This document shows positions 3,215 to 57,583 of a stretch of DNA of 64,000 nt, piece by piece. The translations under genes and the position numbers were made by a program. Source of the DNA: a virus (lineage: Duplodnaviria; Caudoviricetes); the IMG/VR virus record IMGVR_UViG_3300028048_000091, positions 1-64,000 of that record; one strand, 5' to 3'. The first letter of the stretch is position 1. Every line of letters begins with the position of its first letter. Below the pieces are notes generated by a model. That model was given only the letters and a program-made list of their open reading frames with translations. It was not told where the DNA came from and ran no database searches.

Positions 3215-3370
3215 CAATTTTTAACAAAAAATATTTGGATATATGCAGAAAAAGTAGTATCTTTGCACGACGAAATGTAAAACATACCAATTCACTTGGT
3301 AAAACTACAATAATTATAATTTAGTAAATAAATAAATTTTTAAAATTTAATTTTTTTTTGTAAAAAGACT

Positions 3371-5258: not shown

Positions 5259-5375
5259 TATTTAATTTAGGCGAAAATAAATTAATTTTCAATTTTTTAA
5301 CATAAAATATTTGGATAATTGAGAAATAATTAGTATCTTTGCGAACGATAAAACCAAAAAATATATAAATAGATT

Positions 5376-9109: not shown

Positions 9110-10099
9110 ATGAAACCACGTTTAACAAAGGAGGAATTTATTGAAAAAGCTAAAAAGGTACATAAGGATATTGACTATGATTATTCAGAGGTTGTATATG
9201 TGAATAACCACACACCGGTTAAAATAATTGACCCTGAATTTGGTCCGTTTGAGCAAACACCAATGAAACATTTATCTGGTCACGATTCTCCGGCTAGACG
9301 CTATATAAAAATATCAAAACGATTAAGTTTAACCAAGGAACAATTCATAAATAAAGCCATATTAATTCATGGTAATAAATATGATTATTCAGAAGTTGAT
9401 TATCTCAATTATTTTACAAAAGTTAAAATAATTTGTCATAATAAAGATGAACATGGGGTTGAACACGGTGAGTTTTGGCAAATACCTGCAAATCATATCA
9501 ATAAAAATCATCCAAAGGGGTGTCATAAATGTGGGGGAAGTGATAAGTTATCCACTGAAGAGTTTATTGAAAAAGCAAAAGAAGTACATGGCGACAAATA
9601 TGATTATTCTAAGTCTGAATATATTAACCATATGACAAAAGTTTGCATAATTTGCCATCAAAAAGATTGTTATGGTAATGAGCATGGTGAATTTTGGCAA
9701 ATACCAAATAGTCACTTGAAAGGTTGTGGTTGTCCAAAGTGCAATAATTTAAAAAGGGTGCGTTATATAGAACATTTACTAATTAAAAACAACATAAATT
9801 ATACATTAGAAAAAAGTTTTGAATGGCTACGTAATAAAGGCTTATTGAGACTTGATTTTTATTTGGATGACTATAATATAGCAATTGAACATCAAGGTCC
9901 TCAACATTTTAAGCCAACTAGATTTTGGCATAATGATAATGTATTAGCCTTAAAACAATTTAAAGAAAATCAAATAAGAGATAAAGTAAAAAAAGAACTT
10001 TGTGAAAAACATAATATTCAAATATATTATATAAATTACAATGAAAATATTAAAGAAAAAATAAAAAAATTACTAAATGAACTTAATAAAAACGAATAG
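9110..10099 (+). CDS. Putative homing endonuclease (DUF723-like repeats plus Vsr/PD-(D/E)xK domain)
   Basis: Three EEFIEKAK.VHG.KYDYS...HGEFWQ repeats; LDFYL..IAIEHQGPQH. Confidence 0.8.
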   Translation: MKPRLTKEEFIEKAKKVHKDIDYDYSEVVYVNNHTPVKIIDPEFGPFEQTPMKHLSGHDSPARRYIKISKRLSLTKEQFINKAILIHGNKYDYSEVDYLNYFTKVKIICHNKDEHGVEHGEFWQIPANHINKNHPKGCHKCGGSDKLSTEEFIEKAKEVHGDKYDYSKSEYINHMTKVCIICHQKDCYGNEHGEFWQIPNSHLKGCGCPKCNNLKRVRYIEHLLIKNNINYTLEKSFEWLRNKGLLRLDFYLDDYNIAIEHQGPQHFKPTRFWHNDNVLALKQFKENQIRDKVKKELCEKHNIQIYYINYNENIKEKIKKLLNELNKNE

Positions 10100-21130: not shown

Positions 21131-21220
21131 TTTTAGTATTTTTTAACTAAAAATATTTTGACATATCAGAAATAATTTGTATCTTTGCACTTGAAAAAAT
21201 AAAACAAAATAAAAACTATT

Positions 21221-22003
21221 ATGGTATTAGATGATTTAATTACTAAACTTACAGAAGTAAGGGACACAGTTGGTGGTACAACACCTATTCATGGTTTTGA
21301 TAATAAGAAATTGCTTCTTATTGATGAAAATGATGATGGCCTTAAACAAAGTGAACGATGCGGAAATTGTGGAAAATGGCTTGAATTTGTTGATGAGGAA
21401 AAATATCAGCGTATTATTGATATTAGAAAAGATAACGAATGCAATTGCGGAGTTTATGCATACTACTCAGACGGAACTATTAAACAGTATGAACAAGCTG
21501 ATAGTAATGCAATTGGTGTAGCTGTTATCACAAAAGAGCATTCTTTTGTTATTGATAAATTTGATGTTTCATTTAAGGATAAAAACGTTTTTTCTTTCGG
21601 GTTTTGCAATAAATGTGCCCCTACTTGCGGAATTACGCTAACAAGTGATAAAGAAAAAGCCGTAAAAGATTATTGCGGAGAGGGAAATACAACGGTTTTA
21701 TTGGATGCAGGTTTAGAAAAAAATGAAGTACCAACAGATGTTGCCGCATTTTATTGCCATTTTTGCTTTAATAGCAAAGGTTATTTGCCAGCACTTGGCG
21801 AATTAAAATTAGCGCAAAAATATAAGGAAAATATTAATAGAATGCTAATAAAGATAGGTGGCAAAGAAATGCGTGGATTGTATTGGTCATCAACCTTATA
21901 TGATATGTCTACCGATTCGTGGCTTCTCGATTGGAGTTATGGTGGTGTCACTAACGACGGTAGGGATAACTACTATTACGTTAGGGCGTTCGCTGCTCTT
22001 TAA
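21221..22003 (+). CDS. C-type-lectin-fold (DUF1566-like) DGR target protein
   Basis: GVYAYYSDG...GYLPALGEL...YWSSTLY...YVRAFAAL, homologous to both C-terminal domains of 32098-34593. Confidence 0.8.
   Translation: MVLDDLITKLTEVRDTVGGTTPIHGFDNKKLLLIDENDDGLKQSERCGNCGKWLEFVDEEKYQRIIDIRKDNECNCGVYAYYSDGTIKQYEQADSNAIGVAVITKEHSFVIDKFDVSFKDKNVFSFGFCNKCAPTCGITLTSDKEKAVKDYCGEGNTTVLLDAGLEKNEVPTDVAAFYCHFCFNSKGYLPALGELKLAQKYKENINRMLIKIGGKEMRGLYWSSTLYDMSTDSWLLDWSYGGVTNDGRDNYYYVRAFAAL
21881..22000 (+). repeat. DGR variable region VR1
   Basis: Aligns to 33661-33783 and 34471-34590 with differences concentrated at codon positions 1-2. Confidence 0.8.
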
Positions 22004-22035
22004 AACTTTTTAATATTTAAAAATCATTTATAACT

Positions 22036-22500
22036 ATGCAAAAAGTAATTGGAACAACTGAGGACAGGTTAAACAGATTTATGTCCATGTGTCTTGAATG
22101 GCAGAGAGATTTACGTAATGGTATTTATCACCCAGCAGCTTATTACTTCACCAATTATCATCTTGGTAAGGTTAAGAAGGAAATGCTTGGTGACTTAAAG
22201 CATGTTGTTGTTGACCGTGATTGGGCAATTGATAAAATGAATGAAATTAGCCTTTTCCGTGCCGAGAATGAGATTGGTAATGGGTTTAATGCCAATAACC
22301 GTACAATCTATAATAAGACTAATCGTAAGGCCTCTGCAACACGTCAGCTTGACCTGTTTGGAAATACTACAACTGTTAAGACAAAGACCAAGCAGAAGAA
22401 AACTACGGCAACAAAGCTAAGTCCTGATACCAAGGCATTTGAACTAATGAATGAACTCCTATCACTTGGATATAAGGTGACATTGGAGAAGAAAGTTTAA
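22036..22500 (+). CDS. Hypothetical protein
   Basis: Last gene of the + block; followed by a hairpin plus T tract at ~22530-22570. Confidence 0.6.
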   Translation: MQKVIGTTEDRLNRFMSMCLEWQRDLRNGIYHPAAYYFTNYHLGKVKKEMLGDLKHVVVDRDWAIDKMNEISLFRAENEIGNGFNANNRTIYNKTNRKASATRQLDLFGNTTTVKTKTKQKKTTATKLSPDTKAFELMNELLSLGYKVTLEKKV

Positions 22501-22816
22501 TCATCTTTTTTTATATTTATAATTTTTTCCGTCCGTTGATGCTGTAATAAGGTGTTGATGGACGTTTTTTCTTGATTTTTGCCATCAGCAGATACTATAT
22601 TTATAGTATAATATATTAAGAAGTAATATTATGCATTTGTTAGAAAAATTAATTAATATTTGTTATGGTTATGCTGGGAATAGTTTAATGTATAACCAAT
22701 TTATAGTGAATATTGCCTTGTTATTAACAGCAATCTAACTTCTCCTAAATATTTGCAAAATTTGGGTGTAAAAAAAAACGGAACTACCTTTTTTGGTAAT
22801 TCCGAATTTATGGTTT

Positions 22817-23314
22817 CTAACACAGTACTGGGTCAGCTTGCTCATACCCCACATGAAGTGGCCGTCCTTCTGCTTTTAAATCTTGTGGATTATCAGGACT
22901 TAATACTCCGATGTTATATTGCGGACCGTCTGTGATTGTCATTTTGTCACGGTATTTCTGTTCCATTTTATTCACACATTCATTTTCCTTTAACTTTTGA
23001 AGGTTACAATATAGTCTGTCCTTGAAGTCATTTACAAGCATTGTAAGGTCTTCAGGTTCATCAACAGCCCATCTGTCCGTCTTTATGACAAGATAGTACC
23101 CTTGCTTATTTAAAGCCTCTTCACGGCTACATATTGCGTCCTCTGCCTCTATTGTGATTGTTTGAACAGGGTCATCTTCTGTACGCATATTGGTATCATT
23201 CTCTTGAATATAGGTGATGGACATCTTTTCTATTCCTATCTCACATACTTTGCCATTACTTTCGGGTAATGCATAAGGCAAAATCTCAATTCTATAATCT
23301 CTATTGTTATCCAT
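22817..23314 (-). CDS. Hypothetical protein
   Basis: 165 aa ORF. Confidence 0.6.
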   Translation of the reverse strand: MDNNRDYRIEILPYALPESNGKVCEIGIEKMSITYIQENDTNMRTEDDPVQTITIEAEDAICSREEALNKQGYYLVIKTDRWAVDEPEDLTMLVNDFKDRLYCNLQKLKENECVNKMEQKYRDKMTITDGPQYNIGVLSPDNPQDLKAEGRPLHVGYEQADPVLC

Positions 23315-23326
23315 ATTTTATATATT

Positions 23327-24193
23327 TTATAATACTGTTATTAACCGTTTAGTTATGTCTGGTAATGAAACCTTCTCATATGTTGCATCATCTTTAAGCC
23401 ATATAAGCCTCCTATCGATTATTTCATATCCAAGTTGTTCAAGACCTAACTGATAGAGGTTTAATTGTAGTGTATAAAGTGATTTAGGTTCATTGATAAA
23501 GTCCGTAAAAGGTTCAAGAAGGGTTTCATTTCTACTCCTTGCAAAATCATTATAAATGTCATTATTAGTTTTATAATCGTGTAGAAGAAGTTTCCACTTA
23601 CCTTGTTGTTTCATTGCTAAAAGTATGTCAAAAGTTCCTGCGTATGGGTTCTTAACATTGAATTTATCATTAACCCCCATATATATTCTTGCTTCCGGCA
23701 TAACAGGGTAAATTTCATCTATCTTGTATAAATCTTCCCAATAATGCATAACAGCGTTTTCCTTTGGTGAATGTGGAAAAAGATACCCTTCTTCATATTG
23801 AGGTTTTGTTATATTTGATATTTGCTCAGGATGCCCTTGCATAAAATGCATGAAATCTTCTCCGTAAAGATGAACTCCTGTACCTAAATTTGTGGCTTGA
23901 TGGTTATGTTCAAACCATTCACGTTTAAGTTGTTCATACGTTACACCAAGTTTTAATGCTTTTGCAGCACAAATCTCATCCCAATCCACTTCAGGCTCAA
24001 ACCTATGTGCTGTAGCACTTACACTTGGCAATTCCGTTTTTGTACCGTCAGATTGTGGTAAGTAATACTTATGTACATCTTCTATGAATTCAAGATTAGA
24101 GAACGTCTTTGTGATATTTTCCCTTATTTCTTTAACCTCATCTGGCTCAGGATTTCTTTCAAGCCTTTTTTTTATATCATTAATATTTAGCAT
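23327..24193 (-). CDS. PD-(D/E)xK exonuclease (Cas4/RecB-like)
   Basis: HKYY, PSVS, GTGVH, AGTFD..DYKTN, YTLQLNLY. Confidence 0.8.
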   Translation of the reverse strand: MLNINDIKKRLERNPEPDEVKEIRENITKTFSNLEFIEDVHKYYLPQSDGTKTELPSVSATAHRFEPEVDWDEICAAKALKLGVTYEQLKREWFEHNHQATNLGTGVHLYGEDFMHFMQGHPEQISNITKPQYEEGYLFPHSPKENAVMHYWEDLYKIDEIYPVMPEARIYMGVNDKFNVKNPYAGTFDILLAMKQQGKWKLLLHDYKTNNDIYNDFARSRNETLLEPFTDFINEPKSLYTLQLNLYQLGLEQLGYEIIDRRLIWLKDDATYEKVSLPDITKRLITVL

Positions 24194-24206
24194 ATATATA
24201 TTTTTT

Positions 24207-24251
24207 TGCAAATATACTACAAAAAAACGAGACTTCCAAAGAAATCTCGTT
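24207..24251 (-). promoter_or_regulatory. Fused terminator-promoter, second copy
   Basis: Minus strand aacgagatttctttggaagtctcgtttttttgtagtatatttgca, near-identical to 19025-19069. Confidence 0.65.
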
Positions 24252-24268
24252 CAATTTTTAGCTTTCTT

Positions 24269-24787
24269 TTAGAATGGCAAATCATCAGCCCCATCATCAG
24301 TTGTAGTCGTTGGAGCAGGTGGTGGTGTAGGTGCTGCCTTAACAGTACCTGTTGTAGGATTACGTGGTGCTGCCTTCTTTGGTGCTGCCGTAGTTGTTGG
24401 GGTTGCCACTGTTGCAGTGGTTGGTGTTGCACCTACAGTATTGTCAGCATCTGATTTATTGCTGAAATTATCATCAAACATAACAGTATCTGCAATAACC
24501 TCAAGACCAGGGTCTAACTCATTATTTGCACTTCTTACATAAGGACTTGCTTTCAGATTACCCATAACCTCTACTGTCTTACCCTTTGTCAAATAAGGTA
24601 CAAGGCGTTCAAGATTTGGATTTGAAGACAGGAAACCTACAACTCGGAACCAATATGTTTCTGTACCGACTGTACCACCTACATACTCATTGTTTGCAAT
24701 ACGGAACTCAACAAGACGTGAGCCAGTGGTTGTCATTTTAATCTCCGCATTGGCCGCTAAACGGCCTGATAACATAATTTTTCTCAT
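24269..24787 (-). CDS. ssb: Single-stranded DNA-binding protein
   Basis: OB-fold SSB motifs (GRL, WFRV, LTKGK.V.V.G.L) and acidic DDLPF tail. Confidence 0.9.
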   Translation of the reverse strand: MRKIMLSGRLAANAEIKMTTTGSRLVEFRIANNEYVGGTVGTETYWFRVVGFLSSNPNLERLVPYLTKGKTVEVMGNLKASPYVRSANNELDPGLEVIADTVMFDDNFSNKSDADNTVGATPTTATVATPTTTAAPKKAAPRNPTTGTVKAAPTPPPAPTTTTDDGADDLPF

Positions 24788-24899
24788 GTTCTTTAAAATT
24801 ATTTGTTAAAATTTAAATTAATATTTACTATCTCTAATTTTCAGTTGCAAATATACTACGTTTTTTCCAAACTTCAAAATGTTTTTCCGTTAATTTTTG

Positions 24900-25976
24900 T
24901 TAAAACCTCACTCCACGCTTCTCTAACTCGTTAATTAGGTCTTGTACCGTATTAAGTACTATTGTTCCATCTTCTGGAATGAACTTAATATTATACTTCT
25001 TTTCCAAAGCGATAGTAAGTTCAACTAAATCCAAACTATCGAATGCTAAATCATTGTAGAAGTTAGTAGACTTAGTAATTGCAATATCATCATCAGCAGT
25101 TAATATTCTTATTTCTTCCTCTAAGTCCTTTGGAATTGCTTCCTTTGTTCTACAATAGTTGATATCCGGTATAATGTGCATATCTATAAACTTCTTTTTA
25201 TTATTTTCAGCCATAATTGGAAATGCATCGAATGCTTTCCATACGCTTCTATCGTAATCGGTATTTAAATCATCATTATGATAATGTTCTACTACCTTAT
25301 ATATAAATCTACCGTATTTCTTTCCATCATCAAATGTATTCCAATCAATACCCTTTTCGTCAAGAAGTAATTTGATTTGTTCATCAGTATCAAGTCTCTC
25401 CAATGTCTTATGTGAAAGCCATGCCTGTGCTGTCTGCTGTTTGGAGTTACGAATACAATCAATCTGTCTCCATAATATATAGGCATAAACATCATTAAGA
25501 TTATCTACGGAAAATGCCTTACAATCAAAGTCAGCCAACTTTGCATCCATAATCATCTGCTTTAAATCTGCATTTGAACATGGCGTATCACAAAGGTCAG
25601 CAAATACCATCTGATTGAATTTAGCAGTTGCCATGGCCGGAATAATGGATAATATTTTTGTTAACCTGTTTCCAAAATATGCACAGGTATTCTCTGTTTC
25701 GAAATCAGTTAATACAAAAGTAATCTCATCACTCTGTGTATATGCAAACTTACAACCCTCTACCTTTTTGCATACATATTTTCCAACCTCATTCATCATA
25801 TTGATGAACTTATCATCAAACGGCTTCTTGTACTTATTCTTAATTAATTTGCTAAATGAATGGCCATCAATGCAAACGATTACATAACTTTTCAATGGAA
25901 GTTTATAATCAGTTGCACTACGTAACTTGGTCATCCTCTCTTTAAGAGAAACTGTTTTTGTATCTTTTTCTATCAT
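24900..25976 (-). CDS. tRNA(His) guanylyltransferase (Thg1-like) fused to a C-terminal acyl carrier protein domain
   Basis: IDGHSFSK, YTQSDEI, FDCK, WRQIDC.RNS; C-terminal DLAFDSLDLVEL...LEKKYNI...TVQDL. Confidence 0.85.
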   Translation of the reverse strand: MIEKDTKTVSLKERMTKLRSATDYKLPLKSYVIVCIDGHSFSKLIKNKYKKPFDDKFINMMNEVGKYVCKKVEGCKFAYTQSDEITFVLTDFETENTCAYFGNRLTKILSIIPAMATAKFNQMVFADLCDTPCSNADLKQMIMDAKLADFDCKAFSVDNLNDVYAYILWRQIDCIRNSKQQTAQAWLSHKTLERLDTDEQIKLLLDEKGIDWNTFDDGKKYGRFIYKVVEHYHNDDLNTDYDRSVWKAFDAFPIMAENNKKKFIDMHIIPDINYCRTKEAIPKDLEEEIRILTADDDIAITKSTNFYNDLAFDSLDLVELTIALEKKYNIKFIPEDGTIVLNTVQDLINELEKRGVRF

Positions 25977-26058
25977 CTTGTTTATTATGTTTAAATTATA
26001 TTACATCGGGTATAATTAAGGTATATTTTTGCTAAATTATATCCTATCAGGTATAGTT

Positions 26059-26418
26059 TTACAATTGATACAAATCTAACCTATTCTTGAGGTCATTATA
26101 ATACTTTTTTGCCGCCTCATAGGTATTGAAGTATATAGTATCAGTTGTTTGGTTCATATACTCTATTTCTACATATGGCTTGACATATACTGTGCCGTCC
26201 TCAATAATGTTATTATCAGCCAATATCTCACTTTCCTTTATACCAAATTGGTAGTGGTAAAACGGTGTGGAATATATGTCTTCTGTGTATGTACTTTTCT
26301 TGAAAAAACCGGTAAGATAAGTATCACCTTTTCTGTGAATGATACTATATTGCCTTTTGTTTACTTCTCTATTATGGACTTTAATTGCTTTTACATGTTG
26401 TTTATTAATTGAAATCAT
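26059..26418 (-). CDS. Hypothetical protein
   Basis: 119 aa ORF. Confidence 0.55.
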   Translation of the reverse strand: MISINKQHVKAIKVHNREVNKRQYSIIHRKGDTYLTGFFKKSTYTEDIYSTPFYHYQFGIKESEILADNNIIEDGTVYVKPYVEIEYMNQTTDTIYFNTYEAAKKYYNDLKNRLDLYQL

Positions 26419-26453
26419 TGTATATGTTTAAATTAATTAATAGTTTTTTGGTA

Positions 26454-26855
26454 TTATCCTAATAATGTTGGATTAAATACTATAATGTAGAATGTTACCA
26501 AAATCTGTATCAAATGTATTATTTGGTCTGTCCAAAGGTTAATCTTATATCTATTAGCCTTCAGGTCATCCACGAATGCATGGATAGCAGTATTAATAAG
26601 GAATAGTTTAATTAGAAGCCAATCACTTGTATCAGTAAGAAACATAACCGGTAATAACACCATTATTGACCATGATATTGCATGCATGATTAGTGCACTG
26701 ATATAGTCGGATTTATATTCCTCGAAACTGATATGATTTTTCTTACATTCCTTTACCCACCATGACTTACATTTCAGATTGGATAGAGAAATAGGTTGCA
26801 AACAAAAATCATCAATAATGTGGCATAAACCCATTAATAATATTATCTTTATCAT
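26454..26855 (-). CDS. DUF3307-like membrane protein
   Basis: HIIDDFCLQ...HAFVD...DQIIH. Confidence 0.75.
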   Translation of the reverse strand: MIKIILLMGLCHIIDDFCLQPISLSNLKCKSWWVKECKKNHISFEEYKSDYISALIMHAISWSIMVLLPVMFLTDTSDWLLIKLFLINTAIHAFVDDLKANRYKINLWTDQIIHLIQILVTFYIIVFNPTLLG

Positions 26856-26947
26856 TCTACTTTTTTCTTAATTTTTTGCAAAAATACTAAAAATTTGTCA
26901 TAAAAACAAATATTTCATTTTAAACTTTGTTAAAATTCGTATATTTG

Positions 26948-27682
26948 TCAAATCATTATTACATTTCCTTCTTGATGATAGACAAAACCGTCATCTAACA
27001 TTTTCATCCATTCTTCTTTAGTTGCCTTGAAACTTGCAAAAGTACTTGCATTATCGGCACACCATTCACACAGTTCTTCAAATGTAGAGAATACAGGACT
27101 TATGGGACTACCTTCAGATGTCGTTTCCCAAAGTTGGTATCCATCACCGGTTGGCGGTTCTATCCATTCGTATTCCTCATGAAGTTTCTTAATTTCCGGT
27201 GTCTGCCATACAACACCTTCACCTTCACAATGAGGGCAAAACAATTGATAGCCATTACGCCTACAGTATTCCTCTGTTAATTGCCATTCTAATCTGCTAT
27301 CTGTTATGCGTTGGTTTTTTAGAACGTAATTTTTAATTTCCTCATAAGGTACAGGTTCATCATTTTCAAACAGTTCTTTTTTGAGTTCATCTTTAGAAAG
27401 AATAAAATCGTATTCCCAACGTTCCAAACTATATGGCTTCTCATTTGGATTATATTGACAGCCTGTTCTATAAGGATGCTGTATATACTTCCCGCCACAT
27501 TTAAAACCATACCAACGGTTTTGATATTCCGTTGCTTCTTTTGTCAGTCCATTACTGCATCTTTCATCTTTATTATAGCAATACGGACAATCTACACCTT
27601 TATATGGATTAATATATCCTTTCCATACTCTATGCCAAGGCCAATCAAAATTCATTGGCACTCTTTTTAATGTTCTTCCCAT
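26948..27682 (-). CDS. Conserved hypothetical phage protein
   Basis: MGRTLKRVP.NFDWP, CxxC pairs, GYQLWETTSEGSPISPVF. Confidence 0.65.
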   Translation of the reverse strand: MGRTLKRVPMNFDWPWHRVWKGYINPYKGVDCPYCYNKDERCSNGLTKEATEYQNRWYGFKCGGKYIQHPYRTGCQYNPNEKPYSLERWEYDFILSKDELKKELFENDEPVPYEEIKNYVLKNQRITDSRLEWQLTEEYCRRNGYQLFCPHCEGEGVVWQTPEIKKLHEEYEWIEPPTGDGYQLWETTSEGSPISPVFSTFEELCEWCADNASTFASFKATKEEWMKMLDDGFVYHQEGNVIMI

Positions 27683-27685
27683 AAA

Positions 27686-28147
27686 TTATTCTACTGTTTT
27701 CAGTATTTCCTCAAACATCGGTTTGATTTCTTTTGTAATTTCAAGCATTTTTTGATATATTGCATTATATCTTTTCAAATCATTCTCATCAACATTATCT
27801 TCACGAATTTTAAGTGCTTTCGTCAATCCAATTAATTCTTCCATTGGGTGACATAGTTTGCGTAATTTCAATGCCGGATGGTCTAATTTCTCTACAATAA
27901 TATCATATTGTTTTGCCCACTCAGGCTGCCAATCTATTATTTCATTTCGTGTTTGAAACGCAAAATACTCTGTTGTGTAATTAGTTGCTTGTTTTTCATA
28001 TTTTGTCGTTTCTACTGTTTGTGTATGTACTTTTTCACCATTAATGAATTTCCAATGCGGAACCATACGTGTAAAATATACTGATTGTCCGTCATTAATG
28101 TTAGTTAAACGAATAATGTAGTTGTACCTTGATTTAACCGTTTCCAT
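27686..28147 (-). CDS. Hypothetical protein
   Basis: 153 aa ORF. Confidence 0.55.
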   Translation of the reverse strand: METVKSRYNYIIRLTNINDGQSVYFTRMVPHWKFINGEKVHTQTVETTKYEKQATNYTTEYFAFQTRNEIIDWQPEWAKQYDIIVEKLDHPALKLRKLCHPMEELIGLTKALKIREDNVDENDLKRYNAIYQKMLEITKEIKPMFEEILKTVE

Positions 28148-28173
28148 AATTTATATTTTTTTACATTTTTTTG

Positions 28174-28298
28174 TGACAGAAGCAGGACTCGAACCTACGT
28201 AAAAGAAGTTAAGGACGGCTATTCTTCTCTCTATGCTTTCCCCATTACCGTCATATAGTTGGGCACCCAGCGTTCTAAACCATCTGAACTATTCTGCC
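28174..28298 (-). tRNA. tRNA-like RNA with non-canonical, expanded anticodon/variable region (isotype not assignable)
   Basis: Acceptor GGCAGAA/TTCTGTC, D-arm GTTC-AGATGGTTTA-GAAC, T-arm GTAGG-TTCGAGT-CCTGC; ~72 nt between D and T arms; own promoter at 28315. Confidence 0.6.
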
Positions 28299-28445
28299 TT
28301 TTTCTTAATTTTTTTGCAAAGATACTACAAATTTTTTAAACAAACAAATATTTTCTGTTAATTTTTACTAAAAAATTTACTATATTAATATTAATAAGGT
28401 AGAAAATAATTATTTTTAACTATAATATAATAGAAAATTACATAT

Positions 28446-29231
28446 ATGACAGATTTTTCTAAACAATACTTAACATTAGAGGCATTAGAGGATGGTATAA
28501 TCAAACTCATCAGAAACATATCAGAAGGTAACGAAAATAAATATCCTCTGAAAGATATACAATACAGCAAGAATGATGGTGAATGGATTGACTATACATA
28601 TAACGATGAAATAACAGTTGTTACAGGTGATAAAATAAGGTGGAAAGCCTTGTGGAATGATGGTGTATCATTCTTTATGTATAACAACAATTTCAAAGTC
28701 AATTGTCTATATAAGGCCTATGGCAATCCTATATCACTGTTAAAAGGTGATGAGTTTGCAGATGTCACAAACCTAACGACACACAATGGTGCATTTGCAG
28801 GCCTTTTCCTTGGCGAAGAGAAATTAACTGATGTATCTGATATATCATTACCGGCCACTACATTAACAAGTGATTGTTATGTTGCCATGTTCCAAGGCTG
28901 TAAGTTAATAACATCTGCTCCTGAATTACCTGCAACAATTGTTGCCTATGACTGCTATATGCAGATGTTTGCTGATTGTACCTCATTGACAGATGCACCG
29001 GTGTTACCTGCAACTAAATTGGCAATAAGCAGTTACTATTGCATGTTCTTGGGCTGTACGTCTCTTAAACATGTTAAATGCTATGCAACAAATATAACAG
29101 CATTGAACTGCACAGGGCATTGGTTGAATAATGTGGCAACAAGAGGTATATTCGAAACAGCAGGTGCTTCATGGAAGACAGGAGAATCCGGTATCCCTGA
29201 AGGTTGGACGGAAAAGGAAATTAATGAGTAA
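28446..29231 (+). CDS. BspA-like leucine-rich-repeat protein, probably virion/surface associated
   Basis: Repeated LPATTL..CY..MF.GC..L units. Confidence 0.7.
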   Translation: MTDFSKQYLTLEALEDGIIKLIRNISEGNENKYPLKDIQYSKNDGEWIDYTYNDEITVVTGDKIRWKALWNDGVSFFMYNNNFKVNCLYKAYGNPISLLKGDEFADVTNLTTHNGAFAGLFLGEEKLTDVSDISLPATTLTSDCYVAMFQGCKLITSAPELPATIVAYDCYMQMFADCTSLTDAPVLPATKLAISSYYCMFLGCTSLKHVKCYATNITALNCTGHWLNNVATRGIFETAGASWKTGESGIPEGWTEKEINE

Positions 29232-30170
29232 CTATTTCCAAGATGTAGGCTCTAAATCATTGTATTGGTTACAATCTTTCTGTGCCTTAACAATGGCCTT
29301 ACCTATTCGTTTAACGATTTCCCTATCGGAATATTCAGCATATTTGATTAATTCATTAACCGTTAGATTCAGACCCATACCACGATTTGGGTCTTTATTA
29401 TTTATAACGTTTAGTAAAGCTGTAACTCTTGGACTATCTTTATGCTGCATTAGCCATTCTTTGTCTCTTCTTAATTGTAACAAACCTTGGTATACGGGAC
29501 TTTCTTCTATAACAACGCTTGTTGGTTTGCCAATTTCCTTGTAATTATTCACTAACAACGCATATAAGCCATTGACATATGCCTCATTTTCACATTTCCT
29601 TGTGAAATACATAATATTTCCAATTCTTTTGGCTGTTTCATCGTTTTTGCCAAAATATTCTTTTACAAACCTTGCTGCCTTATAGAAATTGTTATCCTCG
29701 AATGTTTTTCCTGATTTTGTGTCTTGGAAATAATGTTCTACCTCATGTTGTACGGTATCTGAAAAAGTAGTATCAACTATTTGACCACTGATGGCATGAA
29801 TATCAATAGATAATGTTAATGTGGATAGTTTAAAACTATTAGGAAAATGAGGTAATTTGTCTTTACCCTCATTATAGAAATTCCTATCTCTGAAATTGCA
29901 ATATCTGAAATATACTGTAATTGTCTTTCTAAATGCCTTAAAAGGAAAACTACCAATACGATAGGAAGCACCATCAATATTGGCAAAATATTGTTTAGGA
30001 TAACTGTTCAGTTTCTCCTTGATTTTATCCATGATTTTAAACGAGGCTTTGGTAGCACCATAGTGTATTCCAAGTTCCTCATTTACAACACAACGTATAT
30101 CTGAAAATAGTTGGCAATGTTGTTCTACCTCGTTAATATCTTGCACTAAATAATCAAAATTTCCACTCAT
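29232..30170 (-). CDS. HExxH zincin-like protein, paralog 2
   Basis: EELGI, QHEVEH, CENEAY, RIGKAIVKAQKDC; start set after the promoter at 30177. Confidence 0.6.
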   Translation of the reverse strand: MSGNFDYLVQDINEVEQHCQLFSDIRCVVNEELGIHYGATKASFKIMDKIKEKLNSYPKQYFANIDGASYRIGSFPFKAFRKTITVYFRYCNFRDRNFYNEGKDKLPHFPNSFKLSTLTLSIDIHAISGQIVDTTFSDTVQHEVEHYFQDTKSGKTFEDNNFYKAARFVKEYFGKNDETAKRIGNIMYFTRKCENEAYVNGLYALLVNNYKEIGKPTSVVIEESPVYQGLLQLRRDKEWLMQHKDSPRVTALLNVINNKDPNRGMGLNLTVNELIKYAEYSDREIVKRIGKAIVKAQKDCNQYNDLEPTSWK

Positions 30171-30218
30171 ATCATTTGCAAATATACTATTTTCCTTTGA
30201 AAGTACCAAATATTTTCC

Positions 30219-30677
30219 TTAGAGATATTGATTAGAGTAGTCTATAAGGTTTGGTGAGTACAGGAAATCAAGTATTTTCTCTGCTAACTTCTCATATTTG
30301 CTTTCCTTTGGAATAAGGTACAGATAATTGGATGGGGCTGTTTCATAGTTATTACAGTTTTCCTCCATTTCAACATAAAGCATCCAAGATGGTTTTTCAA
30401 TTTCACCGGTCATTACCTTATTAATAGTATAATGTACAAATTCAATCCTATCCTCTTGTGAATGACAAGTATTTGTGAATACCTCAGGTATCTCCATAGT
30501 CACAGGGGCTTCATCCCAATATTTGTAGTTTGCATAGGTATTCTCCTTGCAGAAAACACCATAGTAGAATAACTTATCAGGAGTTAATGGAATGTTGAAA
30601 ACAATGAAAAATTCCTGAAGCATATCCTTTAATGCCTCAACAGAATTACTTGAATATATAAATGTACCAATCTTCAT
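30219..30677 (-). CDS. Hypothetical protein
   Basis: 152 aa ORF. Confidence 0.6.
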   Translation of the reverse strand: MKIGTFIYSSNSVEALKDMLQEFFIVFNIPLTPDKLFYYGVFCKENTYANYKYWDEAPVTMEIPEVFTNTCHSQEDRIEFVHYTINKVMTGEIEKPSWMLYVEMEENCNNYETAPSNYLYLIPKESKYEKLAEKILDFLYSPNLIDYSNQYL

Positions 30678-30745
30678 TTTTTGATTTGTAATAAATTTTC
30701 ACTAATAAATAGATTTTTTTGAAGAAAATTTTGTCGTTTTTGGCC

Positions 30746-30772
30746 GTGATTTACTATTTAATAGTAAATCAC
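30746..30772 (-). promoter_or_regulatory. Palindromic TAT-TAA-ATA element
   Basis: gtgatttactat-taa-atagtaaatcac, perfect 12-bp arms. Confidence 0.55.
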
Positions 30773-30848
30773 TAAATTAATTAAAAAGAAAGGAACATTT
30801 AGATTAATTAATCTTTGTGTTCCTTTTGAATTATATGCTAATTTAACC

Positions 30849-31307
30849 TCATTGCTCATATATGGTTATTGGTTCTTTAAGAAAATACTCTTCACTTATA
30901 ATATAGCATTCATTATCATTGCCATTTCTTTTCAAAAAATAATAATCATAGCCGTCATTGTGCTTTTCTGTCTCTATTGCATCGTATCTGATAACGGTAA
31001 ACTCTGTGATTTCGTGATTAAGCAATACCTTAACAATATCGTCTTTTTTAAAAAAAGGTATATGGGGGTGTGCAATTTTCCTTACACATTTAAGTATCAT
31101 GGGTTCTTTACCTTCGTTTTTCAAATATTGGCCAAGAGAAGGTTCTTTTTTAGTTCTGTATTCACAGTAATAGACTATTTCCTTATCTCGATATGTACGC
31201 AGGAAATTTGCATCATATATTGATAATTCAGAACTGTAATCTTCAAATTCAACTCCATCGACAGTAATAGTTCTGTCTTCGTTCATAGATGTAATTAATC
31301 CACTCAT
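30849..31307 (-). CDS. Hypothetical protein
   Basis: Downstream of the promoter at 31338. Confidence 0.55.
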   Translation of the reverse strand: MSGLITSMNEDRTITVDGVEFEDYSSELSIYDANFLRTYRDKEIVYYCEYRTKKEPSLGQYLKNEGKEPMILKCVRKIAHPHIPFFKKDDIVKVLLNHEITEFTVIRYDAIETEKHNDGYDYYFLKRNGNDNECYIISEEYFLKEPITIYEQ

Positions 31308-31662
31308 TTGTTTTAATGTTATTTTTTTATTTTCAATTGCAAATATACTATTAATATATCATATAACAAAATATTTTTCAAGTTTTTTAACTTAATATTT
31401 ATTTCTCCCCTAAAACTTGAATTTTTTACTCAATTGCTAATATTTATATTTGAAGTCAAGGTAGAAAACGCTGGCATTCTTGCTAAATTGTAATGGAATC
31501 TATATTCCGAGAGTATACTTAAAGTAACCTTCAAAATAGACATACACGCAAAGCAGAACCGATATTGTGCCAACATCTTTTTTTATTGTTTGCAAAAAAG
31601 GCTTTTCAGAGGATATATAATATAAAGGAAGAATAATAAAAAATTAACATACATAAGATAAA

Positions 31663-31941
31663 ATGGCTAGAAAACATTTAGTACACGTTAAATCTAATCA
31701 GACCGTTACAGTTGGAGATGTAACTTCAGCAAAATTGCCAACCATTGCAGGTACTGCTGATGACATTGTATATGGCGAGCTTGCTGTTAACTATAAGAAG
31801 GGCTATGAAACAATCTCAACAAGAAACGATAATAATGAAATCGTTGAATTTGCTTCAAAAGGCTATGTTGATAACAAGACAGGCAATGTAGAACCGACAA
31901 GTTCTGCACAGAATGCATTCAGCGACCTCGACCTGAGATAA
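31663..31941 (+). CDS. Short tail-fibre N-terminal-like protein
   Basis: HVKSNQ...LPT...YGELAVNY motif resembling phage fibre attachment modules. Confidence 0.5.
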   Translation: MARKHLVHVKSNQTVTVGDVTSAKLPTIAGTADDIVYGELAVNYKKGYETISTRNDNNEIVEFASKGYVDNKTGNVEPTSSAQNAFSDLDLR

Positions 31942-32097
31942 AAGGTTAAGAAAAAAAGGAAAAGACAATATATATTTCTTTATTCCATTTCTTCTTTTCT
32001 TTCTAACAAACATCAACAAGGAAAGTAGAAAGATATATATGGTCAGGGTGGAAAAACAAAATAAATCTAATTTCATAAAAAATATAGATAAATAACA

Positions 32098-34593
32098 ATG
32101 CCAAATTCAAATAGAATAACAAAAGACTGGCTCGATATAGCAGATGCTAACCTTTCCAAGAAATTACAACCACTTGCAAATGCAAAGGTAGTAAGAGTAC
32201 TTGATACAGCACCAAGTACAACACAGGAATGGGAGGCACTTACAAGCTATACCATTGACGGAGTTACACATGCATTCAAACCGGGTGATGAGGTCAGAGT
32301 ACCGGATAACGGTAGCGAAACAGGCTATACCTATTATAAACTCGATGCAATTGTCTCAGGGGCTGCTAAATGGGCTTTATCTGAAAGCGATGTGACTTCA
32401 AGAGTTAAGATAACCGTAAACCTCGATGCATACGTAAGCACCGACGGTAATACATATACAAAGACATCTGGTACAGAACTTGAAGGGGTGGTAGTTACCC
32501 TTACAGAAAACAGTGAAGGTACTTCTGTCAGCAAGACCGTGGCTTCAGGGGAAACAAGCGTGATATTCAAAGGTGTTGCACCATTGCTTACCTATACATT
32601 AAGCGTAAGTGCCATCGACGGATATTCACAACCGGCCAACCAAACAATCACTAACCCACAAATGGGTGATGAACTGACAAATACATTCGAATACTATGCA
32701 GATGAATATACATTCACCGCTACAAGTAACCAAGATACACAAAGTACACCGGATGAAACTATCGCTGCTGTAAAGGCAACCATTACATACGGTGGGGAAA
32801 GCTATCAGAAAATCGGTACAATGAAGTTACCAAAGGATACCGTACCGACAAGCGTTACATGGCCGGATGTTACAGGGTATAGTAAAACAAGTAGCAATAC
32901 AGGGTTTGCGTATAGCGCAGAATATAGCACTGAGGTATGTGTGGTGAACGTAAGTGCTCTTAACTCACAGGAAGAAACTGTGGCGGCTGACGGTGCCACT
33001 GTAAGTATCAACGGTATTGATTATGTATTGCAAGATGGTACACAGGGGGCTACTAAATCAGGAAATATATGGACCGTTACTACTAAAATACCATATAATA
33101 CTACATACTCCATTGCTGCTACAGGACTTACAGGATATGATGACCCAACTACTATAAGCAATATTACAAGCAACCAAATTACTAGAACAGTCAATTTGGA
33201 GTTTACTGAGAGAATTGAAAATGGTGTCTATGCATACTATTCAGATGGTAGTTTGAAACCATATGCCTCTGCTACAAGTGATGCTATTGGCGTGGCTGTG
33301 ATAGACGATGATGCATACTTCGTAATCGATAAAACAAATGTAACAGGTGATTATAAGAAGTTTGGCGGCTACGATAGGGATTTATCAAGTACAAATATAG
33401 TACTTACAACTGATAGTGCTACTGCTAAGACTGATTTTGATGGATATAGGAATACAACTAAACTAATCTCAGCTTGTGCTGGATATACAGATAGTACATA
33501 TCGTATTACTGGTGCACCAGCTGCTGAGGCATGTAGGTCACAATTCAGTGGAAAAGGCTATTTAGCGGCTGCTGGTGAATGGGACGTTGCCTATAAATAC
33601 AAAACAGATATCACTTCCATGATGTCTAAAATTGGTGGTACAGCATTGACAGAAAGCGACTATTGGACATCAACCTTATATAATACGTCTACCACTTCGT
33701 GGGGACTCAATTGGCGTAATGGTGGTTTCCCTGGCGACCATAGGAGTAGCAGCGGCCTTTACGTTAGGGCGTTCGCTGCTCTTAATACTTCATTAACTTT
33801 AACACTTGTATCCTTAGATACAAGTGGAGTAAGTGGTCTCTCCGTTATAGTTACTGATAGAACCGGTACCTCTCAGACCTTTACCTCAGATAGTAATGGA
33901 CAAGTAACTGTTAGTAGTCTTGCTTGCGGACAGGTTAATGTATCTGTTGCCGGTAAAGCAACCTTGAATGGTACTGGTACATTTAATGTTAATAGAAGTG
34001 TAACTACGCATACAACTACAATAAAAACGCCATCTACAGGTGTGTATGCATACTATGCAGACGGAAGTATGAGTACTACAGGTACATCAACGGCTATTGG
34101 CGTTGCAGTTATAACAAGCAATTCAGCATTTGTTATTGATAAAACTAATATACCAGCTGCTGGCGGTTTAACAACTGTTCGTTATGGTGGCTATAATAAG
34201 GATTTAACCGGCGCTGCAATGATAGCCACTGATACTACAACTGCCAAGACTGATTTCAGAGGTCAGCAGAATAGTATAAATATTGCTGCTGCTTGTAGTG
34301 GGTATGCAGATGGATACAGAACCGGTTCCGCTGCTGAGGATTGCCAAAGTAGATTTAATGGAAAAGGTTATCTTGGAGCATTTGGTGAATGGTATGATGC
34401 TTATCAGAATAAAACAGCTGTGAATAGTATGATGACAGCTATTGGTGGTACTGCAATAACAAGTGGTAACTATTGGACTTCAACTTTATATGATGCGTCT
34501 ACCCGTTCGTGGCTACTCTATTGGTATGATGGTGGTGTCAATAGCTACTATAGGTATAGCGGCAATTATGTCAGGGCGTTCGCTGCTCTTTAA
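32098..34593 (+). CDS. Ig-like-domain adhesin/fibre with two tandem C-type-lectin DGR target domains
   Basis: Thr/Ser-rich beta-sandwich repeats; two GVYAYY.DG...YWTSTLY...YVRAFAAL domains. Confidence 0.85.
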   Translation: MPNSNRITKDWLDIADANLSKKLQPLANAKVVRVLDTAPSTTQEWEALTSYTIDGVTHAFKPGDEVRVPDNGSETGYTYYKLDAIVSGAAKWALSESDVTSRVKITVNLDAYVSTDGNTYTKTSGTELEGVVVTLTENSEGTSVSKTVASGETSVIFKGVAPLLTYTLSVSAIDGYSQPANQTITNPQMGDELTNTFEYYADEYTFTATSNQDTQSTPDETIAAVKATITYGGESYQKIGTMKLPKDTVPTSVTWPDVTGYSKTSSNTGFAYSAEYSTEVCVVNVSALNSQEETVAADGATVSINGIDYVLQDGTQGATKSGNIWTVTTKIPYNTTYSIAATGLTGYDDPTTISNITSNQITRTVNLEFTERIENGVYAYYSDGSLKPYASATSDAIGVAVIDDDAYFVIDKTNVTGDYKKFGGYDRDLSSTNIVLTTDSATAKTDFDGYRNTTKLISACAGYTDSTYRITGAPAAEACRSQFSGKGYLAAAGEWDVAYKYKTDITSMMSKIGGTALTESDYWTSTLYNTSTTSWGLNWRNGGFPGDHRSSSGLYVRAFAALNTSLTLTLVSLDTSGVSGLSVIVTDRTGTSQTFTSDSNGQVTVSSLACGQVNVSVAGKATLNGTGTFNVNRSVTTHTTTIKTPSTGVYAYYADGSMSTTGTSTAIGVAVITSNSAFVIDKTNIPAAGGLTTVRYGGYNKDLTGAAMIATDTTTAKTDFRGQQNSINIAAACSGYADGYRTGSAAEDCQSRFNGKGYLGAFGEWYDAYQNKTAVNSMMTAIGGTAITSGNYWTSTLYDASTRSWLLYWYDGGVNSYYRYSGNYVRAFAAL
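33661..33783 (+). repeat. DGR variable region VR2 (internal to the ORF)
   Basis: Aligns to VR1/VR3; carries one extra NNC codon. Confidence 0.8.
34471..34590 (+). repeat. DGR variable region VR3
   Basis: Aligns to VR1/VR2; ends in the invariant agggcgttcgctgctctt. Confidence 0.8.
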
Positions 34594-34600
34594 ACCTTTA

Positions 34601-34640
34601 AATATTCTCCCCTTATTTTTTGGGGAGAATATTCTTTTTT
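34601..34640 (+). terminator. Hairpin after VR3 (terminator and/or DGR target hairpin)
   Basis: aatattctcccc / ggggagaatatt 12-bp stem plus T tract. Confidence 0.7.
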
Positions 34641-37954: not shown

Positions 37955-39214
37955 TTAAAACTTGAACAAACTTGTCTGTTCATTATTAACTTCTTGTTTC
38001 AACCTACCACTGCTTTTTAGTACCTCATTGCTGAGTCTGTCATCCACAGTTGGGTAGTCCACAAGCGTGAATTCGGATGTACTGCACCCTATTATTCTTA
38101 ATCCCTCATCAAGTATATTTAATGCTGCATTGTAGTCCCTTTCAATCACCTCACCACATTGAGGGCAAGCCCATTGTCTATCATTTAATGTGAGGCTTTT
38201 ATTGATGTAACCGCAATTATGGCAAGTCTTACTTGACGGATAAAACCTATCAACAAATACTATCTTTCGGTTATACCAATTTGCCTTATATTCAAGCATC
38301 CTACGAAACTCACCGAAGTTCATTTCACAAATACTCTCTGCAAGATTATGATTCTTAACCATTCCTTTCACGTTCAAGTCTTCCATACATATGACTTGGT
38401 TTTCGTCAATGAGTGAATTACTTACTGTGTGAAGATAGTATTGCTTCTTGTCGTTTATCTTTTTATATAACTTAGCAAGTTTAATCCTTGCCTTGTTTCT
38501 GTTATTGCTTCCTTTCTGTTTTTTCGACAACTGACGTTGTAACCTCTTAATCTTCTTTGTTTCAGACTTCTTGAAATGAAGATTGTTGAATACTTCTCCG
38601 TCACTTGTTATTACAAAGTCCTTTATTCCAAGGTCAATACCTACAACAGCATTGGTTTCTTTTACCTTGTGGGTCAAATCACCATCAACCAATATGGACA
38701 AGTAGTATTCTCCACACGGCAATCTTGTTAATGTTGCTTGTCTGATATTATCGTGATGCTTCTGTAGATACTGCGCATATTTCTCATTGCATCTGAATCT
38801 GACATTTCTTATGTTTGCAAGTGACAAATAATATGTTGTATAGTTGTTACGTTTAGAAATCGCTCCTAATTCAAACCTACAACTTTGTTTGTTGTCGTGC
38901 TTTGATTTGAATTTAGGAAATCCACTATGTTGCTCAAAGAAATTCTTATAAGCGGAAAGCATATCTTTCACGGCTTGTTTGAGAACCTTTGTGTTCTGTT
39001 CTCTGAGCCAAATGAAATTATCATCCTTCAATAGTTCGTGATGAACAAATTGCCCAAGCGTAGAAAGGTTTTCTGATTTACCGTCATTCTTATATGATTC
39101 TATTTTTCTGTTAAGGCATTGATTATAGACAACACGGTAGCATCCAAGCAACTTATTGAACATTGTTGCTTGTTCCTTGTTCGGATATAACCTTATCTTA
39201 ACTGCTCTTAACAT
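37955..39214 (-). CDS. tnpB: TnpB RNA-guided endonuclease
   Basis: KIRLYP HTH, GIDLG (RuvC I), MEDL (RuvC II), CHNCG/CPQCG Zn finger, RDYNAA (RuvC III). Confidence 0.95.
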   Translation of the reverse strand: MLRAVKIRLYPNKEQATMFNKLLGCYRVVYNQCLNRKIESYKNDGKSENLSTLGQFVHHELLKDDNFIWLREQNTKVLKQAVKDMLSAYKNFFEQHSGFPKFKSKHDNKQSCRFELGAISKRNNYTTYYLSLANIRNVRFRCNEKYAQYLQKHHDNIRQATLTRLPCGEYYLSILVDGDLTHKVKETNAVVGIDLGIKDFVITSDGEVFNNLHFKKSETKKIKRLQRQLSKKQKGSNNRNKARIKLAKLYKKINDKKQYYLHTVSNSLIDENQVICMEDLNVKGMVKNHNLAESICEMNFGEFRRMLEYKANWYNRKIVFVDRFYPSSKTCHNCGYINKSLTLNDRQWACPQCGEVIERDYNAALNILDEGLRIIGCSTSEFTLVDYPTVDDRLSNEVLKSSGRLKQEVNNEQTSLFKF

Positions 39215-50012: not shown

Positions 50013-50615
50013 ATGAGAATAAGAGAATTATTAAGCACGTCAAGTGGTGGCATTGACCCAACGACTGGACGCGGAATGATAGGAAAATATGAGGTAGTTG
50101 ACCTTGGTTTACCAAGTGGGTTGTTGTGGGCAACGTGTAACGTTGGAGCGACGAGGGAAGCAATATATGGAGACTTTTATATGTATGGTAAAGGCGCACA
50201 AACGTATTATTATGAAGACAGTGAGTATGAAGGTATGGAAAACCCACTAGCATCAAGTGTTGATACTGCAACACAAGTAATGGGTAGCGGATGGAGGATG
50301 CCAACACAAACTGAACTAAATGAGTTGATTAATAATACTGCATTCAGTCTTTATACCATTGATGGCAGATATGGCGGAAAGTTTACAAGTAAGACAAATC
50401 CAAATGCATATGTGTTTTTCCCTTTCGCTGGCAACTACATCGATGGTAATTACCAAAGTTACAATAGGCACTGCAACGTTTGGAGTTCTACGCCTAAAGA
50501 TAATAGCAACTCCTACGCTTTCTACTGTGGTGATGGCTACCCATCATCTCCGTATAAGGGCGTTAGTGACAGCCCTCGTAACTACGGGTTCTCGGTGCGT
50601 GGCGTACATACGTAA
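50013..50615 (+). CDS. Fib_succ_major/DUF1566-like CLec-fold protein, likely DGR target
   Basis: VDLGLPSGLLWATCNVGA, WRMPT..EL.EL, FFPFAG, WSST, GFSVRGV. Confidence 0.75.
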   Translation: MRIRELLSTSSGGIDPTTGRGMIGKYEVVDLGLPSGLLWATCNVGATREAIYGDFYMYGKGAQTYYYEDSEYEGMENPLASSVDTATQVMGSGWRMPTQTELNELINNTAFSLYTIDGRYGGKFTSKTNPNAYVFFPFAGNYIDGNYQSYNRHCNVWSSTPKDNSNSYAFYCGDGYPSSPYKGVSDSPRNYGFSVRGVHT

Positions 50616-56850: not shown

Positions 56851-57583
56851 ATTAATTAATTTTTACTAATGTTTATATTCGTTTGCAAATGTACTATATA
56901 TTTTTGAAAAAACAAAATAATTTTTGTTAAATAATGTTATTTTTCCAAAATATCTTATTTCCACACAGGTTAAGACTGACTGCTTCACCAAGGTTCCAAA
57001 CCTCATGTTGTACCTCCTCTAACAAGTCTGCTAATATATCATCATGTACATGACGGCAATTGCATAGGGTTTCTATCAGTTCCAAACAATCAGTATCAAA
57101 CTTAACATCATCCTCACTGATACTATTGTGTATTTCTTCTACAATATCTCTTGCAAGGAAATAACTGTTTTGACTGATAAAGTCATTGATGTCAGCATAC
57201 ATGTATTTTTCGAACAACATACATTATTTAGTTTTTAGTTTTCTTAGTTGTTTTCTTCTTCTTCTTCTTAGGTTCTACAGGGATGTCATCTTCCTTTTCC
57301 TCAGGAGATAACTCACTTTCCTCCTTATATTCATTAAGGAGTTTATTGTTGGTTTGCCATTTATCCATCATGTCAGAAGACCATGGAAACCATTTAGTCC
57401 ATACTTTACCTTCCCTTGAAAAATACTGATAACGTTTATATAACATTTTATTCTTCCTCCTTTTCAACTACGATATATGCTTTATAGTTATAGTTGATAT
57501 CATAATCTTTTTTTAGACCGGAAGACAAACTTGTTTCAATAGCATTTTTTAACATCTTTTGCTTTTGCCATTGAGCACCGGCC

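Follow-up and report, generated by a model that had tools for sequence, protein, structure and literature searches.

It is established from the diversity-generating retroelement (DGR) of Bordetella phage BPP-1, in which Mtd is the target and avd, the template repeat (TR) and brt form the cassette, that change from TR to variable repeat (VR) is specific for adenines, that the template is rich in AAY, that the VR is at the C-terminal end of a C-type lectin (CLec) domain, that Avd is encoded by an accessory gene and that a GC-rich 3′ boundary differs between VR and TR. Each of these features has a counterpart, a putative one as regards Avd, in the case dealt with here, that of three tracts in a fragment of a phage genome (Duplodnaviria; Caudoviricetes) and of a template that fits them closely. 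The stretch of DNA analyzed, 'the window', covers the first 64,000 bases of a 106,704-bp IMG/VR viral contig (IMGVR_UViG_3300028048_000091, here G000), and the tracts, all on its + strand, are VR1 (21902..21995, after which a VR-specific tail, CTCTT, runs to 22000), VR2 (33682..33778) and VR3 (34492..34585). Their origin from a DGR is close to certain, and it is very probable that they are genuine variable repeats written by mutagenic retrohoming from a template of the type carried by a short metagenome contig, L019, which VR1 matches; for these particular copies, retrohoming would be the process that wrote them.

Several precedents other than BPP-1 are pertinent. In one survey almost no phage DGR had a target more than 50 kb from its reverse transcriptase (RT) gene, and targets with DUF1566, DUF823 or Fib_succ_major domains constitute 'category d' (CLec2, e.g. 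Legionella LdtA) (PMC5758913). Type V pilin folds like that of 4EPS are a named class ('domain group 1') of Bacteroides DGR variable proteins, 70% prophage-encoded (bioRxiv 10.1101/2024.11.15.621889). Phage cassettes with two targets are documented in the 'tentaclin' phages nd4 and nd12 (PMC10743442), and in bacteria non-adjacent targets, genes with multiple VRs, incomplete loci served in trans and the coexistence of intact and disrupted RT variants have all been described (PMC10907252).

An earlier reading of the window from its letters alone (the sequence-only reading) had pointed to three segments, starting at 21881, 33661 and 34471, that align codon for codon. They are where it placed them, in frame, with tracts of ~95 nt each, and its sets of variable codons (GAT/ACT/CGT, AGT/CGT/TAT, AAC/GGC/AGC, GGT/CAT/TAT, TAC/AGC/GGC and ATG/ACG/GCG), the fixed codons between these and the identical 18-nt tail are as it described, as is the divergence of the upstream bodies, the three domain copies having only 43-45% protein identity. 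Its wording 'three dispersed' 3′ segments needs qualification on two counts. The segments at 21881 and 34471 do end their genes, but that at 33661 is internal to an 831-aa open reading frame (ORF), and two of the three (33661 and 34471) are in that one ORF (32098-34593), 810 nt apart. Nor are the tracts exactly alike in form. VR2 is one codon longer than VR1 and VR3, with the extra codon in an AGC AGC GGC run, and has one non-A mismatch to the template (GTC to TTC), while VR3, at the C-terminus of the same gene, has two third-position differences near the tail from VR1 and VR2 (TAT GTC vs TAC GTT).

Comparison of the tracts with the domain bodies that precede them brings out the peculiarity of the VRs. 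Among 139 aligned codons of the bodies, 46 residues are invariant yet only 14 of the 46 have the same codon in all copies, and position 3 varies in 107 of the 139. In the VR, i.e. the last 40 codons, 23 residues are invariant with the same codon in 20 of them, and positions 1, 2 and 3 vary in 16, 11 and 6 codons respectively. By Fisher tests of VR vs bodies the contrast greatly exceeds what chance would give, with P 9e-6 for shared codons and 1e-12 for variation at position 3. The VR ends are homogenized at silent sites and diversified at positions 1 and 2, a pattern that ordinary divergence does not yield.

The template that corresponds came from a metagenome scan anchored on the invariant VR tail, the sole match being L019 (Ga0247609_10603279, 1,161 bp). 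Its minus strand has, in order, a promoter motif of a family found in the window (95% identity over 39 nt to window 5304-5342), a 130-aa ORF that resembles bAvd (PF22296, E 7e-7, 30.1 bits) and an A-rich repeat. The repeat is TCT ACC AAT TCG TGG AAA CTC AAT TGG AAT AAT GGT AAT GTC AAT AAC AAC AAT AGG AAT AAC AAC AAT TAC GTT AGG GCG TTC GCT G, followed by AACTT, the TR-specific string being GTTAGGGCGTTCGCTGAACTT. The template deduced in the sequence-only reading proved nearly right, with 88 of 93 nt the same from TCT to CTT; of the five differences, three are inside the homing tract and the remaining two make up the AA that distinguishes templates from VRs at the 3′ boundary. Counted over a 92-nt tract with 34 template adenines, VR1 has 16 mismatches at A and one at a non-A, which is at the 5′ edge (none in the 3′ 50 nt), VR2, with 3 nt removed, has 18 and one, and VR3 has 17 and two (TAC to TAT and GTT to GTC). 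In total 51 of 55 mismatches are at template adenines (P 2e-7 to 3e-6 per VR), and each tract and this repeat would form the sort of pair, differing almost only at template adenines, by which a DGR is recognized, with the template here on a separate contig. The third positions in the VRs are fixed because the template adenines are distributed 18/15/1 over codon positions 1/2/3.

A further shared feature is at the 3′ edge, where after a GC-rich block the three window VRs, and both VRs of the related phage G001 considered below, have GCTCTT, and both templates have GAACTT. A GC-rich element with VR- or TR-specific sequence beyond it, resembling the initiation of mutagenic homing pair IMH/IMH*, is present, and by analogy to BPP-1 it may function as the boundary. 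In the mechanism proposed, A-rich template RNA would be copied by an error-prone RT that misreads adenines and the cDNA would take the place of the 3′-terminal sequence of a lectin-fold domain, as far as the GC-rich boundary (AGGGCGTTCGCTG). The template would be of the L019 type, located behind a bAvd-like gene, in a cassette that, unlike in relatives, would not be beside its targets in the window phage.

Target gene 1 (21221..22003, +; 260 aa in the ORF list) has an unrelated N-terminus of ~60 aa followed by a single lectin-like domain (21404-22000), and target gene 2 (32098..34593, +; 831 aa) has an N-terminal stalk followed by tandem lectin-like domains (33178-33783 and 34033-34590), each with a VR at its end. 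The domain is ~190 aa, and the gene 1 copy is 45% and 43% identical to the two copies of gene 2. Neither gene was assigned to a PHROGs family, and at the VRs Pfam matches of the Lcl_C (PF07603, DUF1566)/Fib_succ_major type scored 15.7 and 11.5 bits, neither of which reaches the gathering cut-off of 34.9, though some members of the target domain family have a precomputed PF07603 annotation. For the N-terminal 360 residues of gene 2 an atlas search gave beta-sandwich leads only, all sub-threshold. An AlphaFold2 model of the domain (pLDDT 87.2, pTM 0.86) has as its best Foldseek match 4eps, a Bacteroides ovatus fimbrial protein (E 2.9e-6, TMq 0.66), and next the C-terminal domain of Legionella Lcl, 8q4e (E 4.4e-3, rmsd 1.5 over 76 columns), with weaker matches to C-type lectin, formylglycine-generating enzyme (FGE)-like and Mtd folds (Mtd 1yu4, E 2.3). 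As modeled, the VRs would lie at the end of a fold of C-type-lectin type, as in known DGR targets, and for the relationship of the target domain to Lcl_C and Fib_succ_major it is the predicted fold that speaks. Another protein in the window (50013-50615, +; 200 aa) has a match to Lcl_C (E 1.8e-7) and one to Fib_succ_major (E 1.2e-4), with a C-terminus that cannot be aligned to VR1-3; no A-tolerant template match to it was found on the whole 106.7-kb contig, and it may be the target of a second, unseen template or no DGR target at all.

What a complete arrangement looks like in this group is illustrated by G001 (IMGVR_UViG_3300028048_000064), a 150-kb fragment, with an estimated completeness of 41%, of another large phage. 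It was found via a profile of family members; a single-protein search for related loci had given no relative. An ORF of 844 aa in G001 can be aligned over the full length of the 831-aa ORF of the window (41% identity, E 1.8e-133) and is a target with two domains and two VRs, followed in order by bAvd (E 4.9e-16), TR and RT (RVT_1, E 5.9e-20). Of the 40 adenines of their own TR, 16 are mismatched in one VR and 20 in the other, with no mismatch at the 55 other positions. Exact patterns reached little else. For the TR core, the viral contig collection gave only G001, and no match was found there for the VR scaffold plus tail, in the genome contig collection for the VR scaffold, or in either for the TR-specific tail. 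The first scaffold pattern used on metagenome contigs, which also gave none, had demanded GGTGG, absent from the real template. With the L019 Avd as query there was one relative only, of 39% identity and at the end of contig L021.

Comparison with G001 is also informative about L019 itself. On the 3′ side of its template is a 24-codon in-frame ORF with KIRNLIKNGAEF at its end, a counterpart of KIRSLIKNSVEF at the C-terminus of the G001 RT (minus strand, ~800-900 from the 5′ end), and the 245 nt after this remnant are 96% identical to DNA just 3′ of the G001 RT gene, so that to judge from the alignment the L019 RT gene looks like one with an internal deletion of ~1.25 kb. DNA shared between G000 and G001 amounts at best to 89% identity over 56 nt, with none longer than 60 nt above 90%. 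Since the L019 flank is G001-like and G000 has no comparable DNA, L019 may come from a third phage rather than from an unseen part of the window genome. The exact L019 Avd (P0081) is also encoded on an 8,488-bp European Nucleotide Archive (ENA) contig, and P0085, an ortholog of target gene 2, is on an ENA contig of 8,488 bp; there the cassette probably adjoins that ortholog.

P0085 is instructive in its own right, as its lectin domains are window-like and its N-terminus, with 35% identity to that of the window protein, resembles that of G001. Identity to the window is 77% for the body of domain 1 and 87% for the linker and body of domain 2, falling to 53% and 62% in the VRs (VRa and VRb). In VRb all 12 differences are at template codons with A (12/8 vs 0/12, P 6e-4), in VRa 14 of 15 are (P 1e-3), and at the protein level the L019 template could yield each VR residue of P0085 through A changes alone. 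The internal VR of P0085 is of template length; the extra codon of VR2, in its AGC AGC run, may be due to slippage duplication after the last homing or to a longer template allele such as that of G001. A second variant, P0084, from an ENA contig of 26,557 bp, has an N-terminal 360 aa that is 97% identical to that of the window and then three lectin domains, each with a VR. (In the VR-like ends of P0084 several of the otherwise 'fixed' tail residues differ, as in VRPFCTI, TRAFRTL and VRAFSPL.) On these comparisons target gene 2 appears to be a recombination hot spot, strongly mosaic between strains.

Strains were also compared through four runs (X1-X4) by means of assembled contigs only, in which rare variants are invisible; X1, which contains all of G000 at a contig depth of ~67x, is the probable source run. 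The gene with VR1 is accessory. It is missing in X2 and X4, where contigs join 21197 to 22020 and to 22017 with 8 and 6 letters between. The segment concerned (window 21198-22019) is bounded by a direct repeat, TAAAAC, at 21200-21205 and 22001-22006, and the second copy opens on the stop codon that immediately follows VR1. In X3 a contig was found that matches the window only over 21983-22017, 35 nt that comprise the GC-rich VR tail and the first bases past the stop, and has unrelated flanks; the X3 strain may have the VR tail in a different setting. Sparse coverage of 33142-34542 in X2-X4, the end of an X3 contig at 21869 (depth 3.9) and a joint in X3 from 34468 to 33659 are hints of divergent VR regions and not evidence for them. 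One member of the target domain family (L008, 5888-6463) is in G002 (IMGVR_UViG_3300045988_156584), a complete 62.8-kb phage with terminal repeats, in which neither RT nor template was found, and the C-terminal codons of this family member lack the pattern of fixed third positions.

As to the genome from which the window derives, G000 has no terminal repeats and CheckV estimates its completeness at 27%, which would imply a size near 400 kb; the label 'jumbo' comes solely from that estimate. The phage is present in many metagenome runs of bovine-gut or rumen type, from many studies. The form TTTG...TAnnTTTGC is that of Bacteroidota promoters, and a promoter-like motif of this form is repeated on both strands of the window, making Bacteroidota the likely host. 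One such motif, of repeat family D5/D9, is directly 5′ of target gene 1 (21133..21206, +), and a D5/D9-type motif is likewise 5′ of the Avd gene on L019. The family as a whole, ~50-75 nt with the core TTTG ... TAGTATCTTTGCA, precedes many genes on both strands (examples being 3211-3284, 5287-5360, 21133-21206, 24846-24901, 28315-28370 and 56884-56939) and is found on L019 and G001 too. A repeat of a different sort, coding and of ~205-220 nt, is present in three tandem copies, 67-79% identical, at 9122-9705 (families D7, D12 and D19).

Genes around the targets are non-structural or unassigned, e.g. an exonuclease, a Thg1-like enzyme and a phosphoesterase, and no tRNAs were found in the window. 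The product of 24900-25976 (-) resembles tRNA-His guanylyltransferase (phrog_4717, E 1.3e-53) and, in its C-terminal part, acyl carrier protein (phrog_5934, E 4.6e-7). Three ORFs of ~420 aa, at 37955-39214, 57589-58851 and, on the contig beyond the window, 72323-73585 (all -), match a G001 gene (97786-98871) with 35-36% identity and by their similarity appear to be a multi-copy gene family. ORF matches between G000 and G001 are only 12, from which the expected position of a cassette could not be deduced. Two hairpins near the VRs deserve mention. One, with a stem of 9-10 bp and a 4-nt loop, is within coding sequence ~25 nt 3′ of VR2 (33803..33826, +; DNA fold z = -4.3, with none of 200 shuffles as stable), and the other, a terminator-like 12-bp hairpin followed by a T-run, is after VR3 (34601..34633, +; z = -3.3), with a like hairpin and T-run after the C-terminal VR of G001 (z = -3.1). 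The occurrence of downstream hairpins is mixed, since they follow VR2, VR3 and the C-terminal VR of G001 and are absent after VR1 and the internal VR of G001, so no conclusion on a cruciform homing signal was drawn. After VR3, where relatives have the cassette, come the putative terminator and convergent genes.

Several results weigh against the explanation of the tracts by retrohoming from a template of the L019 type. In the 106,704 bp of G000 the RVT_1 profile (E<=10) and the bAvd profile found no match, and a template scan of both strands that allowed mismatches only at candidate A found none. L019 lacks an RT, is only 1,161 bp long and is unlinked to the window genome, and its bAvd match is under the Pfam curated cut-off of 40. 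VR2 differs by 3 nt in length and VR3 has two non-A changes, while the VRs of G001 have none, and all three window VRs have GGT where the L019 template has AAT. Contigs of X1 have one sequence per VR, although contigs cannot reveal rare variants. The shared GGT is, on a rough estimate, not improbable by chance, selection for glycine could also explain it, and it is not counted as a contradiction; alternatively the true template may differ slightly from that of L019. The absence of RT, avd and template that the sequence-only reading reported for the window extends to the whole contig, where the G001 RT protein as query also found nothing and a scan with the L019 template found only VR1-3, so that no cassette is present in the 21.9 kb upstream of VR1 or the 72 kb downstream of VR3, where the contig ends. 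Its diagnosis of DGR VRs in lectin-fold domains stands, and its deduced template has a close real counterpart linked to a bAvd-like gene. Its proposal that one template serves all three tracts does not, since VR2 is one codon out of register with one non-A mismatch and VR3 has two. The accompanying idea, of a template in the genome of the window phage acting in trans, stays conjectural, with an RT found nowhere and the sole recovered cassette being RT-deleted with a G001-like flank.

Accounts without any DGR are very improbable. Three paralogous domains on one contig could swap their 3′ ends, and gene conversion among them together with diversifying selection on surface residues might be invoked, but this leaves unexplained both the external A-rich copy behind an Avd gene, with the mismatches concentrated at its adenines, and the fixed third positions at variable codons. 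Given a DGR, the question is where the mutator now is. That the VR modules were written in an ancestor or donor phage and either came by recombination without their cassette or were later left without it, so that the VRs are now frozen and drifting, is a serious possibility that falls somewhat short of being probable. In G001 the cassette is directly 3′ of the orthologous gene, as it probably is on the 8,488-bp contig with P0085 and the L019 Avd, and in the window phage the terminator and convergent genes follow VR3 instead. The target gene is mosaic (P0085 a hybrid, P0084 with three domains) and the VR1 gene present or absent according to strain, RT deletion from a cassette has an example in L019, the complete phage G002 retains a family member although it has no RT or TR, and drift is visible in VR2 and VR3. 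Yet non-A sites have drifted very little (0-2 of ~58), which would make any orphaning a recent event, and 73% of the genome is unseen.

That unseen portion is one argument for supposing that one intact avd-TR-RT cassette, in an unassembled part of the genome, now rewrites all three VRs in trans, as the contig covers only ~27% of it. This is somewhat doubtful; that a working cassette of whatever reach is elsewhere in the window phage genome is slightly easier to credit, though possible rather than probable. The VR1 core has no non-A mismatch to the L019 template, the L019 promoter motif is from the family used throughout the window, and trans action is known experimentally and non-adjacent targets are known (PMC5758913; PMC10907252). 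Against it are a VR2 out of register, the two non-A changes of VR3, a recovered cassette without RT whose flank resembles G001 at 96% identity where G000 has no stretch beyond 60 nt above 90%, and the rarity of phage DGR targets more than 50 kb from their RT (PMC5758913). An unlikely variant is a split DGR, in which an RT-less Avd-TR locus would supply template RNA and the RT of a second locus (maybe one serving the 50013-50615 gene) or of a co-infecting relative would rewrite three lectin domains, encoded by two genes at a distance of tens to hundreds of kb. Still less likely is service across genomes, where the cassette of a related co-circulating phage with a G001-like backbone would rewrite the VRs only in co-infection. 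In its favor, the L019 template fits the window VRs although its flank is G001-like, and both phage types are from rumen-type samples, with the window phage in many bovine-gut runs; it needs frequent co-infection, however, and we know of no precedent for it. For current activity one can point to the perfect non-A register of the VR1 core and to between-lineage differences that are confined to VRs; against it, to the absence of an RT, the RT-deleted cassette, the lack of any single template that fits and the adjacency of the cassette in relatives. The small drift of VR2 and VR3 argues for rewriting that is rare or has ceased.

From a practical perspective, VR paralogs alone are enough to recognize DGR targets and to predict their template with near single-base accuracy. 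The case adds a lineage of large rumen phages in which a single protein bears two lectin heads, or three in a close strain, each diversified independently, and an extra accessory gene bears a third. Were the cassette indeed far off in a genome of ~400 kb, the distance would be beyond the ~50-kb limit known for phage DGR targets; were it absent, the locus would be a clean example of diversified receptor-binding modules moving between phages without their mutator. The known mechanism of DGRs is left unchanged by either outcome.

In relation to known systems, the window departs from BPP-1, with its one target adjacent to the cassette, in having three VRs in two genes, no linked RT and a domain of another lectin subclass (Lcl_C/4EPS-like). 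CLec2 targets ('category d') and the Bacteroides 4EPS type are linked to it by weak Pfam hits to Lcl_C at the VR and by the resemblance of the modeled fold to 4eps and 8q4e; what differs is that the Pfam scores do not reach the curated cut-off and that a single phage protein has the domain in tandem, preceded by a stalk like a beta-sandwich. Thiohalocapsa PB-PSB1 (PMC10907252) differs in being a bacterium with nine loci on its chromosome and proof of diversification at read level, as opposed to a phage fragment without RT, but there too are multi-VR targets, incomplete loci, remote targets without a single non-A mismatch to a TR far away, VRs that differ in activity, and intact RT loci alongside disrupted ones within a population. 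The nd4 and nd12 phages (PMC10743442) have both targets in a compact, complete cassette and genomes of 33-47 kb, and, as is proposed for the window phage, one template for VRs in two phage genes. In G001 a complete cassette adjoins the target and neither VR departs from its TR at a non-A site, whereas the 106.7-kb contig of the window phage has no cassette and shows slight drift, and a third VR is carried by a separate accessory gene 12 kb from the other two; common to both are an orthologous target with two domains and two VRs, a TR that in G001 is 80% identical to the L019 template, the GC-rich boundary with its distinction of GCTCTT from GAACTT, and the promoter family.

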